From assembly GCA_036276035.1 (NCBI GenBank), contig DASUCM010000009.1, forward strand, positions 1-62,521: a stretch of 62,521 nt of DNA, in the 5' to 3' direction. This DNA comes from Candidatus Limnocylindria bacterium (GTDB lineage: Bacteria > Chloroflexota > Limnocylindria > P2-11E). The notes below the pieces were generated by a model. That model ran no database searches. It saw nothing but the letters and a program-made list of their open reading frames with translations, and was not told the DNA's origin. A program made the position numbers and the translations under genes. Positions 7,142-12,473 of this stretch are shown piece by piece (the first letter of the stretch is position 1; every line of letters starts with the position of its first letter).

Positions 7142-9169
7142 ATGAGAGAGCTGTACCAGGTCGTCGAGGTCGCCCCGTCCTGGTATCAGGACAACATCCC
7201 CTGCCAGGAAGCCTGTCCCGTGCGCACGAACTGCCGCGGCTACCTGAACCTGGCTGCCGCCGGGGAGTTCGAGAAGGCGTGGGAGCTCGCGCTCGACCCG
7301 AACCCCATGGCGTCGATCTGCGGCTCCGTGTGCGCCGCGCCTTGCGAGACGGCCTGCCGCCGCAAGGAGGTCGATAAGCCTCTTTCGATCCGCTACATGA
7401 AGAAGTTCCTGTCCGACTGGACGCACCAGAACGTGCGGATCGACGGACGGGCCTACACGCAGCCGCCGCCCCCCGTCTTCGGCGCGCCGTCGAAGCGGGT
7501 CGCGGTCGTCGGCGCGGGCTGCGCTGGGCTCTCCGCGGCCAGCGACCTCGTGAAGCAGGGCTTCGGCGTGACGGTCTACGACGCGCTCGACCAGGCCGGC
7601 GGCACGACCCTCGCGGGCGTCCCGCCGTTCCGGCTGCCGCGCGAGGTGATCGACCGCGACATCGCGGGCGTGGTGAACGAGAACGTCGAGCTGCGCCTGT
7701 CGACCTACGTCGGCCGCGACGTCACGTTGCGCCAGCTGCACGACGAGTACGACGCCGTGCTCGTCACCGCCGGCTGCTTCGAGCCGAACTACATCGGGAT
7801 CCCGGGCGAGGAGGCGCAGGGCGTCGTCGCAGGGATCGTCTTCCTCGAGCGTGCGTACCGGCAGCGCCCGGTCGAGGTGGGGAAGCGCGTGGTCGTGCTC
7901 GGCGGCGGCTACACCGCGATGGACTGCGCGTCGACCTCATGGCGCCTTGGCGCCGACGAGGTCTTCATCGTCTACCGCCGCGGCCGTGACGAGATGGTCG
8001 TCGACGAGGAGGAGCTCGCCGAGACCGAGCGCGAGGGGATGCACTTCGTCTACCTGTCGTCGCCGGTCGAGGTGCTCGCCGACGAGAAGGGCCACGTGCG
8101 GGGCGTGAAGTTCATCCGGAACAAGCTCGGCGAGCCGGACAAGAGCGGCCGCCGCAGTCCCGAGCCGATCGCGGGGAGCGAGTTCGAGATCCCCTGCGAG
8201 ACCGTGCTCCTGGCGCTCGGCCAGGCCCCGGACACGACCTTCCTCTCCGACTTCCCCGAGTTCCGGGTGAAGCGCTGGCGCGACGTGAAGGTCGATCCCG
8301 AGACGTACCAGAGCGCGGTGCGGAAGATCTTCCTCGCGGGTGACTACCGGACCGGGCCATCGACGATCATCGAGGCCGTCGCCGACGGGCGCTCGGCCGC
8401 CCAGCAGGTGGCGCGCTTCCTCGACCCCGAGGCAGCGTCCGTCCGCGTCCCCGAGTACCACGAGGTCGTGACGCTGCGCCGGTCGAGCACACCCGACAAC
8501 GTCGGGCTCGTCGCCGGCGAGGGCGAGCTCGCGCGCATCTACCACAACATGTCCGTCGATTACGACCGCATCCCGCGCCAGGAGATGCCGAAGCTCTCGA
8601 AGAAGGACCGCCGCGGCCTCTTCCTCGAGGTGAACCAGGGCTACTCGGAGGCGCAGGCGATCGCGGAGTCCGACCGCTGCCTCAAGTGCAACTTCAACAT
8701 CGAGATCGTCGGCGAGCTCTGCATCATCTGCGGCGGCTGCGTCGACGTGTGCCCGATGGACGTCATCCACATGGTGGACATGAGCGACATCGTCGATGAC
8801 GGGGCGATCCCCGCGGTCGGTCAGGCGAAGCAGTGGCAGAACGGCGTCGCGTTCTTCCTCGACGAGACCGCGTGCATCCGCTGCGCTCTCTGCGTCATCC
8901 GCTGCCCGACCGACGCGATCACGATGAACCGCTACGGCTCGGTCATGCCGTCGGTCGGGCGGGCGCTGCCGAAGGAGTCGCTCGACGACGAGATCCACCT
9001 CGACCTCACCGTCGGCAGCCGCAAGTCGATCCGGCCGCTCCCCATGTACGATCCCGTGCTGGCGGCGGGTCTGAAGGACGTTCCCGGTAACGGTCACGCG
9101 CATTCGAACGGCCATGGCAACGGTCATGTCGCGCCCGTCGGGACGCGCGACGTGACGGCGAAGCACTAA
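7142..9169 (+). CDS. GltD-like NAD(P)H-dependent flavo-iron-sulfur oxidoreductase fused to a C-terminal 2x[4Fe-4S] ferredoxin domain
   Basis: N-terminal Cys cluster (IPCQEACPV..CGSVCAAPCETAC). Two dinucleotide folds (VAVVGAGCAGLSAA; VVVLGGGYTAMD). C-terminal CIICGGCVDVCP and CIRCALCVIRCP. His/Gly/Asn-rich tail. Confidence 0.85.
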   Translation: MRELYQVVEVAPSWYQDNIPCQEACPVRTNCRGYLNLAAAGEFEKAWELALDPNPMASICGSVCAAPCETACRRKEVDKPLSIRYMKKFLSDWTHQNVRIDGRAYTQPPPPVFGAPSKRVAVVGAGCAGLSAASDLVKQGFGVTVYDALDQAGGTTLAGVPPFRLPREVIDRDIAGVVNENVELRLSTYVGRDVTLRQLHDEYDAVLVTAGCFEPNYIGIPGEEAQGVVAGIVFLERAYRQRPVEVGKRVVVLGGGYTAMDCASTSWRLGADEVFIVYRRGRDEMVVDEEELAETEREGMHFVYLSSPVEVLADEKGHVRGVKFIRNKLGEPDKSGRRSPEPIAGSEFEIPCETVLLALGQAPDTTFLSDFPEFRVKRWRDVKVDPETYQSAVRKIFLAGDYRTGPSTIIEAVADGRSAAQQVARFLDPEAASVRVPEYHEVVTLRRSSTPDNVGLVAGEGELARIYHNMSVDYDRIPRQEMPKLSKKDRRGLFLEVNQGYSEAQAIAESDRCLKCNFNIEIVGELCIICGGCVDVCPMDVIHMVDMSDIVDDGAIPAVGQAKQWQNGVAFFLDETACIRCALCVIRCPTDAITMNRYGSVMPSVGRALPKESLDDEIHLDLTVGSRKSIRPLPMYDPVLAAGLKDVPGNGHAHSNGHGNGHVAPVGTRDVTAKH

Positions 9170-9193
9170 GAGAGAGAGAGGGCTCTGCGACCG

Positions 9194-9925
9194 GTGCTCG
9201 ATATCCCGCTGCAGGTCTGGAACCGCTTCAAGCAGGGCCCCATCTGGCGTTCGCTCTTCCGCCACGGCTACCCGGACTCCCGGAAGAACCAGTCGCTCGC
9301 GGTCTTCTCGAACGTCTTCCTGCACCTGCACCCGGTCAAGGTCCGGCGCCACGCGCTCGCGATCCCCTACACGTGGTGCATGGGTGGCCTCTCGTTCTTC
9401 CTGTTCCTGCTCCTGACGCTCACCGGGACGCTGCTCATGTTCTATTACCGGCCGACGACCGAGTGGGCGTACTCCGACATGAAGGACCTCGAGACCGTCG
9501 TCGTCTTCGGCCAGCTCCTCCGGAACATGCACCGCTGGGCCGCGCACGGCATGGTCATCACGGTGTTCCTGCACATGATCCGCGTCTTCTACACGGGCTC
9601 GTACAAGCCCCCGCGTGAGTTCAACTGGGTGATCGGGACGCTCCTCTTCGTCCTCACGCTCCTGCTGTCCTACACCGGCTACCTGCTGCCGTGGGACCAG
9701 CTCGCGTTCTGGGCCGTCACGGTCGGCTACGAGATCGCGCGCGCGACGCCGATCATCGGCGACGAGTTCGCGTTCGTGGCCTTCGGCGGCTACCAGCTCG
9801 GACCGAACGCGCTGCTGCGGTTCTACGTCCTGCATGTTGTCGCCCTGCCGCTCGCGACCGCCTTCCTGATCGCCATCCACTTCTGGCGCATCCGCAAGGA
9901 CGGCGGGATCTCGGGGCCGCTATGA
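9194..9925 (+). CDS. petB: cytochrome b6 (N-terminal half of a split cytochrome b)
   Basis: GTG start 24 nt after the previous stop, preceded by GAGAGAGAGAGGG. Haem ligands as H-x13-H ([15 protein letters not shown]) and H-x14-H ([16 protein letters not shown]). TWCMGG matches the haem-ci Cys context of b6-type proteins. Confidence 0.9.
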
Positions 9926-11264: not shown

Positions 11265-12361
11265 TGCCCTTCGACGTCAACACGGTCCTGGCGATCTTCT
11301 CCGCGCTCCTCTTCGTCGGCCTCATCGGCCTCTTCGCGTTCCTCATCCGCCACCAGGAGCAGGTCGAGCCCGAGGAGGAGGTGTATGGCGTCGAGCTCCT
11401 CCGCCAGCATTACGACCCCGGCGCGACGATCGAGCAGCCGACGCCGTACTACGTATCGCCCATCCCGGCGTCCCCGGACCCGCTCGAGATCGCGGGCAAC
11501 CTCGACAAGAAGATCCTCATCGGGGCCGCCACGATCTTCGCCGTGCTCGGGATGATCGGCGGCTACTTCGTCATCCAGGGCGACGCCAGCCCGCTGGGTG
11601 AGGGCGGTCTGCGCGCCGCCGCCGTCAAGCACCAGCTGCGGCTCGATGTGCGGCGCGGCAAGGAGGTCTACGCGAACCTCTGCTACGACTGCCACGGGCG
11701 CGACGGCAAGGGTGGGACGACGCCGGAGGGGCAGGTCCTCCCGGGACTGCCGCTCAACGTTGCGGGCAACAAGTTCGAGACGCTGAAGGGCGATCCGGCC
11801 GCGCTGCAGGCGCGCCGCAAGCTCATCGAGCAGACCATCGAGCGCGGTCGCCACTTCCCGCCGCCCCGCTACTCCATGCCGGCCTGGGGGCGCGACGAGG
11901 GCGGGCAGCTTTCCGACTGGCAGGTGAAGCAGCTTGCCGACCTGATCATGTACGGCACCGACGAGGACTGGGCCGACATCGCGCACATCCGGCAGGAGCA
12001 CGACGCCGATCACCAGGTCGCGGAGCGCATCCCGCCGCCGCCGGCCGTCCAGTCCGGACGCGAGGTCGCGCAGGGGACCTGCGCCTCGTGCCACGGCATC
12101 GCGACCGGCCAGCCGAGCCTGGTCCCGCCGGCCCCGAACCTCAGCGACTGGATCGCCGCGGGGTCCAAGCCGCGTCCGGAGAATGCGCCGCTCACGGCGC
12201 TTGCCGCGACAGACCCGGATTGGCTCACGAAGTGGGTCTCCAACGCGAAGAAGATCAAGCCCGACACGCTGATGACCCCGCAGGCGGCGTCGGAAGGCGG
12301 CACGCTGCCTGACGAGTCCATCCGTCGGGTGGTCGCGTGGCTGCGGGGCGAGGAGCGTTGA
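11264..12361 (+). CDS. membrane-anchored dihaem c-type cytochrome
   Basis: TGATG stop/start overlap. N-terminal TM helices. Two CxxCH motifs (CYDCH, CASCH). Confidence 0.85.
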   Translation: MPFDVNTVLAIFSALLFVGLIGLFAFLIRHQEQVEPEEEVYGVELLRQHYDPGATIEQPTPYYVSPIPASPDPLEIAGNLDKKILIGAATIFAVLGMIGGYFVIQGDASPLGEGGLRAAAVKHQLRLDVRRGKEVYANLCYDCHGRDGKGGTTPEGQVLPGLPLNVAGNKFETLKGDPAALQARRKLIEQTIERGRHFPPPRYSMPAWGRDEGGQLSDWQVKQLADLIMYGTDEDWADIAHIRQEHDADHQVAERIPPPPAVQSGREVAQGTCASCHGIATGQPSLVPPAPNLSDWIAAGSKPRPENAPLTALAATDPDWLTKWVSNAKKIKPDTLMTPQAASEGGTLPDESIRRVVAWLRGEER

Positions 12362-12362
12362 G

Positions 12363-12473
12363 ATGATCACCGAGATCGGGGAGTCCCAGGAGTTCTACGT
12401 CGTCTTCATCACGGTGTTCATCCTCCTGGCGACGATGTACTTCCTCCAGAAGTGGTGGACCACCTACCGGTAG
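12363..12473 (+). CDS. 36-aa single-TM peptide, candidate small subunit of the Rieske/cyt b6 complex
   Basis: Below the ORF-track length cut-off. The ATG lies 1 nt after the cytochrome c stop (TGAGATG). Translation MITEIGESQEFYVVFITVFILLATMYFLQKWWTTYR. All 35 codons after the ATG end in G or C. Confidence 0.5.
   Translation: MITEIGESQEFYVVFITVFILLATMYFLQKWWTTYR

Follow-up and report, generated by a model that had tools for sequence, protein, structure and literature searches.

Rieske/cytochrome b complexes have one accepted outlet for their low-potential electrons, the reduction of quinone at the Qi site. What, then, does a flavoprotein of the pyridine nucleotide-dependent type do at the head of an operon for such a complex? 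The question is raised by a locus at positions 7142-12473 of the 62,521-nucleotide stretch of DNA analysed here (the window; contig DASUCM010000009.1, assembly GCA_036276035.1), which comes from Candidatus Limnocylindria bacterium, a member of the Chloroflexota. Its first gene encodes a protein with a GltD-like core fused to a 2x[4Fe-4S] module, and genes for cytochrome b6, a subunit IV-like protein, a Rieske protein and a dihaem cytochrome c follow on the same strand. We found that this linkage is conserved in the great majority of loci with a homolog of the flavoprotein, and that the proteins are homologous to subunits of Rieske/cytochrome b complexes in anammox bacteria. We tentatively propose that the gene products form one membrane complex in which quinol oxidation is coupled to NAD(P)+ reduction by electron bifurcation.

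A flavoprotein linked to cytochrome b across genomes

Pfam profiles detected a Fer4_20 domain (residues 18-97), a Pyr_redox_2 domain (119-416) and a Fer4_7 dicluster domain (527-592) in the flavoprotein. The core resembling GltD and NfnB (18-430) carries the dinucleotide-fold motifs GAGCAG (124-129) and GGGYTA (254-259). It is followed by a linker with an RCxxC motif (513-516), a 2x[4Fe-4S] module (527-589) with the Cys motifs CIICGGCVDVCP (527-538) and CIRCALCVIRCP (578-589), and a lineage-specific tail (601-675). The RCxxC of the linker is invariant in family alignments, and so are the Cys residues. Matches by sequence in the Protein Data Bank (PDB) were NfnA (9n5u, 1.8e-101), 9bov, StnC (8oh5_C), NfnB and GltD. 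An AlphaFold2 model of the protein (predicted local distance difference test score (pLDDT) 79.6) gave 9bov_A, 8oh5_C and 9n5u_A as the top Foldseek matches, and the best fold matches are chains of NfnABC and StnABC. An earlier note on this DNA had taken the protein for a GltD-like NAD(P)H flavo-iron-sulfur protein fused to a 2x[4Fe-4S] module, and the Pfam and NCBIfam profiles, the PDB matches and the fold all agree with that assignment.

The NADPH modules of NfnB/GltD, Bfu-type NfnABC and StnABC share with the window protein the FAD and NADPH fold behind a two-cluster N-terminal domain, and in the NfnA/StnC-type chains (9n5u_A, 9bov_A, 8oh5_C) the match continues across the RCxxC linker as far as residue 517 or so. 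On the other hand, enzymes of the NfnB/GltD type are soluble and donate electrons to ferredoxin, NAD+ or GltB, whereas the window module ends in a two-cluster ferredoxin domain of its own and is encoded together with a membrane quinol oxidase. The NCBIfam profile PRK12771, which describes a GltD-like core with a C-terminal dicluster, scored 450 bits, below its cut-off of 516, although the architecture is shared (residues 12-596 correspond to profile positions 41-563 of 566). The scores of the GltD profiles TIGR01317 and TIGR01318 were far under their cut-offs, and no GltB-like gene was present in the operon or among the neighbouring open reading frames (ORFs) that were scanned. We reject a role in a GltB-partnered glutamate synthase on these two grounds.

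A hydropathy scan found no transmembrane helix in the flavoprotein, and no signal peptide is apparent at its N-terminus on direct reading of the sequence. The twin-arginine translocation (Tat) motif of the Rieske protein and the membrane anchors of the cytochrome c are further topology signals from the same operon. The protein is therefore predicted to be cytoplasmic, with FAD, an NAD(P)(H) site and four iron-sulfur (FeS) clusters. Residues 601-645 of its tail (8942-9076) are kept among Limnocylindria with a mean identity of 0.64-0.85, and have a pLDDT below 50 in the model; this segment is a candidate for a docking peptide. Variation is seen in the final 25 residues, which are rich in His, Gly and Asn.

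The six close-set ORFs on the plus strand between 7142 and 12473 (Table 1) were confirmed against the ORF list and the translations. The 24-nucleotide gap behind the flavoprotein gene opens with GAGAGAGAGAGGG. ATGA overlaps join cytochrome b6 to subunit IV (9922-9925) and subunit IV to Rieske (10689-10692), and a TGATG overlap joins Rieske to cytochrome c (11262-11266), which places the cytochrome c start at 11264. The earlier note had described six co-directional, tightly packed ORFs with a purine-rich gap, two ATGA overlaps and one TGATG overlap, all of which is borne out. In relatives, a gene for a 168-residue membrane protein is kept at the same place behind these six, and the unit therefore probably comprises seven genes rather than six.

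Between the flavoprotein and cytochrome b6 genes (9169-9194) no promoter- or terminator-like site was found, and folding of the junction was no more stable than that of shuffled sequence (z = +1.2). The reading of the flavoprotein gene as part of the operon thus stands, and co-transcription with the b6-type Rieske/cytochrome b genes is supported at the level of sequence. The distance from the flavoprotein stop to the cytochrome b start among Limnocylindria is -1 to 22 nucleotides, often in the form TAGATG. This spacing argues for translational coupling, which is probably also the case for the window pair. Within the window, the operon genes are each present in a single copy.

In order to see how far the linkage extends, we collected 80 loci with a flavoprotein homolog, taking one genome per species (GTDB), and identified the neighbouring genes by tblastn. 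The query was a 12-sequence alignment, as a 56-sequence alignment was too diverse. Linkage was counted when a same-strand cytochrome b lay no more than 6 kb from the flavoprotein, and carriers were assigned to phyla as labelled in the deposited records. In four loci the sequence stops too soon for a judgement, which leaves 76 that could be evaluated. Cytochrome b, subunit IV and Rieske genes were found beside the flavoprotein gene, on the same strand, in 71 of the 80 loci (71 of the 76 evaluable). Such recurrence in genomes of different species places the arrangement far beyond chance. With F, B, IV and R denoting the flavoprotein, cytochrome b, subunit IV and Rieske genes, the orders were F-R-B-IV (49 loci), F-B-IV-R (11), R-B-F-IV (4) and partial forms. 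Carriers belong to Chloroflexota, Planctomycetota (Brocadia, Scalindua), Acidobacteriota, Nitrospirota, Desulfobacterota, metagenome-assembled genomes (MAGs) of Actinomycetota, Eremiobacterota, Zixibacteria, Omnitrophota, Binatia and others. Acidobacteriota, which include the cultured Geothrix campi, form the largest group.

All ten Limnocylindria loci (78-93% identity) keep the order of the window as far as the contig reaches, with a DUF402 gene on the opposite strand followed by the genes for flavoprotein, cytochrome b, subunit IV, Rieske, cytochrome c, a 36-residue peptide and the 168-residue protein. More than 120 protein clusters from metagenomes and MAGs are 82-93% identical to the flavoprotein, those with names being mostly from Candidatus Limnocylindria, and among genomes the closest match (93%) is L006, a MAG of Candidatus Limnocylindria. 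When 1.84 billion representative proteins were searched exhaustively, many homologs of 550-730 residues turned up with 31-48% identity and the same architecture. Three relatives of these homologs were examined in their contigs (Brocadiales, a Limnocylindrales with a 616-residue version, and a proteobacterial MAG), and in all of them the gene lies beside cytochrome b, subunit IV and Rieske genes.

One locus carries a natural fusion. In the metagenomic protein P0275 (L086, 1953-5549) the flavoprotein is joined through one transmembrane helix to five cytochrome c domains, and a Rieske gene and then a gene for a long, 525-residue cytochrome b follow. As a Rosetta-stone argument, this fusion indicates a membrane location for the flavoprotein, on the side away from cytochrome c.

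Individual loci show further variation. A Brocadiales MAG (L003, 2900-7053) has two tandem flavoprotein paralogs of 574 and 595 residues between cytochrome b and a subunit IV-like gene. A Limnocylindrales MAG (L004, 6320-11372) encodes a 616-residue flavoprotein with 48% identity in the gene order of the window, and another Limnocylindrales MAG (L042, 2800-6654) has an Acidobacteriota-like version with 36% identity in the order F-R-B-IV.

Membrane subunits and comparison with known complexes

The cytochrome b6 (E-value 1.1e-43 with Pfam Cytochrome_B) has four helices, and its haem b ligands are spaced as His-x13-His and His-x14-His. Cys62, within CMGG at the haem cn site, aligns with the cysteine of CLGG or CIGG in b6 chains. 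The protein can be aligned with cyanobacterial and chloroplast b6 only from residue 60 onward. Its first 59 residues are a family-specific N-terminal extension, W-R/K-S-x-F-R ... N-x-F-L-H, which includes His44 (codon 9323-9325). The extension recurs in cytochromes b linked to a flavoprotein and is absent from canonical b6; His44 is invariant in 72 of 72 linked cytochromes b. In the Brocadia and Scalindua orthologs, the equivalent of His44 precedes the Arg of the C-terminal W-R-x-R-K by 204 residues and the Lys by 205. In AlphaFold3 predictions for the Kuenenia proteins, an interfacial haem b has its ligand and charge partners in His43-Arg247 and His62-Arg266/Lys267 (Hauser et al., PMC12954380). 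His44 maps onto His43/His62 of Kuenenia by its exact spacing to the RK pair. The window complex thus shares the features by which the b haems have been proposed to connect with the flavoprotein.

Loci of the F-R-B-IV type (L031-L085, mostly Acidobacteriota) differ at the haem cn site. Their cytochromes b have YLGG, YLGS or GLG in place of CxGG and probably do not carry haem cn, but they retain the equivalent of His44, and their complexes retain the KAPWY motif described below.

The hydropathy scan predicted five hydrophobic helices in subunit IV, as are present in the Kuenenia subunit (PMC12954380). In comparison with the b6f and b6c complexes that contain haem cn, the CxGG cysteine is present in the window but PEWY is not, the Qo-site motif of subunit IV being KAPWY. 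The pattern [AS/G]KAPWY[FL] is invariant in 72 subunit IV homologs. Covariation of the haem cn cysteine with Glu49 of subunit IV was uninformative, as Glu is common both with and without the cysteine.

The Rieske protein has a twin-arginine signal (RRQFF), one transmembrane anchor, and the cluster motifs CTHLGC and CPCHGSLF. Its best PDB matches are the two Rieske proteins of Kuenenia, 9rk3_A and 9rk4_A, from an anammox organism that uses menaquinone; potentials of +303 and +335 mV have been measured for them (PMC12954380). In box II of the window protein the potential-raising Ser is kept, and Phe stands where Tyr would be. Nearly all members of the family have the Ser, and most Limnocylindria relatives combine it with Tyr.

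The dihaem cytochrome c has the motifs CYDCH and CASCH and two N-terminal membrane helices. The 36-residue peptide consists of one hydrophobic helix with 58-81% identity in six relatives (L001, L006, L007, L010, L012 and L013), and is also called as a gene in L002; it is a probable small subunit of the complex. The 168-residue protein, whose gene overlaps the ORF of the peptide, has 3-4 hydrophobic helices and no Pfam match. With its position kept in the Limnocylindria loci at 55-80% identity, it is the probable seventh gene product, a subunit or an assembly factor.

We then compared the locus with known systems. The anammox flavoproteins of Brocadia and Scalindua are 37-40% identical over residues 5-598, and their cytochromes b are 58-61% identical. 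Features shared with the Kuenenia complexes R/b-2 (kustd1480-1485) and R/b-3 (kuste4569-4574) are a split cytochrome b6 with the CxGG cysteine for haem cn, the Ser of CPCHGS in the Rieske protein, a cytoplasmic FAD/NAD(P) subunit with four FeS clusters, and the conserved His with its RK pair. The window flavoprotein also matches 9bp5 (same sequence as 9bov_A) and 5t5i, both among the structural homologs reported for Kuste4570 (Hauser et al., PMC12954380). The earlier note had drawn the parallel to R/b-2 and R/b-3 as an analogy; judged by the identities, the Rieske PDB matches, the five-helix subunit IV and the conserved His, the proteins are true homologs.

There are also clear differences. 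The gene order is F-B-IV-R-c (c, cytochrome c) in the window and R-B-(x)-F-IV in anammox bacteria, and the host is a high-GC soil Chloroflexota with tricarboxylic acid cycle genes nearby rather than an anammox planctomycete. The window adds the 36-residue peptide, the 168-residue membrane protein and a longer flavoprotein tail. On the outer face, the partner is a dihaem cytochrome c in the window, as opposed to an HAO-like protein or a cytochrome with six or eight haems. With a dihaem and not a multihaem partner, the window complex is a relative of the anammox complexes and not the same complex.

The impression in the earlier note that this arrangement is known only from anammox bacteria did not hold, in view of the many phyla and the 71 of 80 loci described above. 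Moreover, short 'subfamily G' cytochromes b have been noted to co-occur with large NAD(P)-binding FeS proteins, with the genes adjacent 'in many other cases' besides planctomycetes (Dibrova et al. 2017, PMC5600118). The same paper, which cites Kartal 2011/2013 and Dibrova 2013 on the co-occurrence, mentions Kuenenia complexes with a cytoplasmic oxidoreductase subunit. Subfamily G has a very mixed taxonomy and the association is given in general terms without a mechanism; Limnocylindria are not in the listed lineages (PMC5600118). The window proteins resemble it in having a short cytochrome b and a Cys-rich NAD(P)-binding FeS protein, a likeness by description. The operon therefore belongs to a family with a cytoplasmic oxidoreductase subunit already described by Kartal and Dibrova, and the arrangement is not rare. 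The kind itself has been noted in the literature, and what is new is a member in Limnocylindria, a lineage not listed before. Our literature search on Limnocylindria respiration, or on NfnB- or GltD-linked Rieske complexes outside anammox bacteria, found nothing specific.

Among better known complexes, Firmicute b6c and actinobacterial QcrABC share the menaquinol type and a dihaem (cc-type) cytochrome c with the window, and the Firmicute complex also has a split b6/subunit IV. However, these complexes have no flavoprotein gene, and have either a three-helix subunit IV or a fused long cytochrome b. According to established knowledge and the alignment with canonical b6, they also lack the N-terminal FLH extension. 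A functional analogy is provided by the b6f complex with bound ferredoxin:NADP+ reductase (FNR), in which a pyridine nucleotide flavoprotein is likewise found on the cytoplasmic or stromal face of a b6-type complex containing haem cn. FNR, on the other hand, has an unrelated fold and no FeS clusters, is encoded outside the pet operon and binds peripherally.

The cytochrome b6 scored 297.5 bits against ExtP, the NCBIfam equivalog profile for the cytochrome b of a selenite/tellurite reduction operon (cut-off 290), and subunit IV matched ExtQ weakly. In Geobacter, ExtOPQ are a Rieske protein, a cytochrome b and a membrane protein, and the ext cluster (extHIJKLMNOPQS) includes multihaem cytochromes, a porin and a rhodanese, with no flavoprotein listed (PMC5877670). 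Every other type of ext gene is missing from the neighbourhood in the window, and nothing in the window points to a selenite or tellurite function. As the gene contents differ, the equivalog name should not be transferred, and gene context leads us to reject a selenite role of the ExtP type. Automatic annotation of this cytochrome b6 as ExtP is probable and would be misleading.

Promoter region and neighbouring genes

A single promoter-like site was present in 5500-14000, and it lies within the divergent DUF402 gene (Table 1). Transcription from this candidate would start about 5 nucleotides ahead of the flavoprotein ATG, giving a nearly leaderless mRNA. The divergent DUF402/flavoprotein pair recurs in the Limnocylindria relatives, with 9-40 nucleotides between the two genes. 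Owing to this tight divergent arrangement, either both promoters overlap coding DNA or the mRNAs are leaderless.

Two long ORFs on the minus strand were rejected as genes. The ORF at 6021-7130 is an over-extended, high-GC artefact, and the region instead contains a LysE-type exporter gene and, in another frame, the DUF402 gene. The ORF at 15926-19357 is likewise over-extended, the actual gene being that of a LysR-type regulator on the minus strand, which corresponds to the C-terminal 300 residues of the ORF (region 15926-20510). SdhA, the flavoprotein of succinate dehydrogenase/fumarate reductase, is encoded at 17705-19558, about 5 kb downstream of the operon. The window also holds genes for succinate dehydrogenase and aconitase as well as many signalling proteins. 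Three class III adenylate/guanylate cyclases are encoded (12971-14419, 34273-36255 and 41827-44526), one of them directly 3' of the operon, and in L001 the operon is likewise flanked by cyclase genes. No Rfam families were found in the window.

Table 1. Features of the flavoprotein/cytochrome b6 locus, with coordinates in the window.
Feature	Coordinates	Strand	Basis or remark
LysE-type exporter gene	6021 to about 6650	-	Gene within over-extended ORF
DUF402 gene	6635-7135	-	Start codon 6 nucleotides from flavoprotein ATG
Sigma-70-like promoter candidate, TTGACG-16-TAGCAT	7103-7130	+	Consensus match only
Flavoprotein, 675 residues	7142-9169	+	Pfam, NCBIfam, PDB matches, AlphaFold2 model
Intercistronic spacer, 24 nucleotides, purine-rich Shine-Dalgarno-like run	9170-9193	+	Direct reading
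Cytochrome b6, 243 residues, GTG start	9194-9925	+	Pfam Cytochrome_B
Subunit IV-like protein, 256 residues	9922-10692	+	Pfam Cytochrom_B_C
Rieske [2Fe-2S] protein, 191 residues	10689-11264	+	Pfam Rieske
Membrane-anchored dihaem cytochrome c, 365 residues	11264-12361	+	Pfam (two cytochrome c domains), CxxCH motifs
Single-helix peptide, 36 residues	12363-12473	+	Hydropathy, conservation in relatives
Membrane protein, 168 residues	12452-12958	+	Hydropathy, conserved position in relatives

Direction of electron flow

In the mechanism that we consider, a dimeric b6-type Rieske/cytochrome b core would contain haems bp, bn and probably cn, together with the five-helix subunit IV and the Tat-exported Rieske protein. 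The membrane-anchored dihaem cytochrome c would occupy the outer face, one or two small membrane subunits would be added, and on the cytoplasmic face the NfnB/GltD-like subunit, with its FAD, NAD(P)(H) site and four FeS clusters, would be docked on the cytochrome b dimer. Quinol, presumably menaquinol, would be oxidised at the Qo site (KAPWY). One electron would take the downhill path to the aerobic chain, by way of the Rieske cluster and then the dihaem cytochrome c. The second would cross to the cytoplasmic side along the b haems. An extra haem, bound jointly by His44 of each monomer, could be its exit, from which it would reach NAD(P)+ over the ferredoxin module, the FeS chain and FAD. NAD(P)H would thus be made without spending proton-motive force, with aerobic respiration as the pulling reaction. 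That a single complex carries out such a bifurcation is our preferred reading, although we hold it with somewhat less than even confidence. We infer the physical docking, the extra haem and the exchange of electrons between the flavoprotein and the b haems, and above all the direction in which the electrons move.

Generation of NAD(P)H has been proposed for the anammox complexes in work attributed to Kartal et al. Two considerations favour the same direction here. The nearest solved Rieske relatives have potentials above +300 mV in a menaquinone organism, and the Ser of box II is nearly universal, with Ser and Tyr as the rule in Limnocylindria. A high-potential Rieske protein working with menaquinone would set the low-potential branch at a value sufficiently negative to reduce NAD(P)+.

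Several points weigh against this reading. The window cytochrome b6 retains the cysteine for haem cn as well as a Qi region like that of b6f, so that ordinary quinone reduction at Qi may compete or even dominate. Thermodynamics favours the reduction of quinone by NAD(P)H over the opposite transfer. The potential of a Rieske protein is not readable from two residues, and the window protein has Phe instead of Tyr. In Kuenenia itself, NAD(P)H production is a proposal and the interfacial haem b a hypothesis from AlphaFold3 structure prediction (PMC12954380). Finally, in 5 of the 80 loci cytochrome b is missing despite room on both sides. All five are Chloroflexota outside Limnocylindria and have unrelated neighbouring genes, with cytochrome b not found within 5-10 kb. 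These orphan loci (L016, L018, L020, L023 and L025) come from Ktedonobacteraceae, Chloroflexia and other Chloroflexota MAGs, and in L018 and L020 a gene for an MqsA-like antitoxin lies directly upstream of the flavoprotein gene.

The same complex might operate in reverse. NAD(P)H would then reduce FAD, and electrons would travel along the FeS chain, via the extra haem where there is one, to haem bn/cn and on to quinone at the Qi site, making the complex an NAD(P)H:quinone and overall an NAD(P)H:cytochrome c oxidoreductase, in a manner similar to the role proposed for FNR and b6f in cyclic electron flow. Electrons run downhill, with no special tuning required, when passed from NAD(P)H at -320 mV to menaquinone at about -70 mV, GltD is known to oxidise NADPH physiologically, and the retention of Cys62 for haem cn and of a b6f-like C-terminal region is compatible with a working Qi site. 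FNR has also been found to co-purify with b6f, as cited in PMC5600118 (Zhang 2001). On the contrary, most members of the Acidobacteriota type have lost the haem cn cysteine yet retain the flavoprotein and the His44 equivalent, and quinone reduction based on haem cn therefore cannot be the common function. Moreover, the unusually high potentials of the anammox Rieske proteins suit the outward direction better (PMC12954380), and carriers would be expected to have ordinary NADH dehydrogenases. We regard reversed flow as possible but rather unlikely.

A further alternative concerns the physiological role alone. With wiring identical to that of bifurcation, the flavoprotein could act as a redox-poising module and drain electrons from the low-potential b haems to NAD(P)+, or exchange them in both directions, when the quinone pool is over-reduced or the membrane potential is high, and thereby limit semiquinone and superoxide rather than supply NAD(P)H in bulk. 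The carriers include aerobes and facultative organisms of many phyla, and a dihaem cytochrome c is typical of aerobic chains, both of which would suit such a safety valve. It remains a variant of the bifurcation model that has no specific support, however, and the flavoprotein gene is strictly kept in first place with translational coupling, which points to a core subunit present in stoichiometric amounts; we therefore consider this role improbable. Least probable of all is that the flavoprotein is an independent soluble enzyme, such as an NADPH:ferredoxin oxidoreductase or the partner of another protein, that merely shares the transcript, for although it has no membrane helix, occurs as an orphan in five Chloroflexota genomes and resembles GltD-like proteins with many partners (NCBIfam list), this is made unlikely by the linkage data, with adjacency kept in 71 of 76 evaluable genomes of many phyla despite reshuffled gene order, and is opposed by the natural fusion to a membrane-anchored cytochrome c in P0275, the conserved cytoplasmic extension common to the linked cytochromes b, and the reported co-migration of all Kuenenia subunits, as cited in PMC12954380 (de Almeida 2016).

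Whichever way the electrons move, a conserved cytoplasmic subunit with NAD(P), FAD and FeS sites implies a second output or input for the complex. Discussion of such complexes has so far been nearly confined to anammox bacteria, and our scan reveals their breadth, including abundant soil Chloroflexota and Acidobacteriota. As the module is widespread and present in one cultured genus (Geothrix), the question can be tested in ordinary aerobes or facultative organisms, outside the anammox bacteria that are hard to grow. A broader extension of the bifurcation model, which we put forward as a speculative and at present doubtful idea, is that the complex represents a general, so far unrecognised route by which soil and sediment aerobes from many phyla lift electrons from the level of quinol to NAD(P)H with O2 respiration pulling, at no cost in proton-motive force. 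The electrons would come from succinate, H2, CO or sulfur compounds, and the interfacial haem b would be their exit from the b-haem chain. Quinol-driven NAD(P)+ reduction, if true, would change models of reverse electron flow and NADPH supply in many uncultured lineages.

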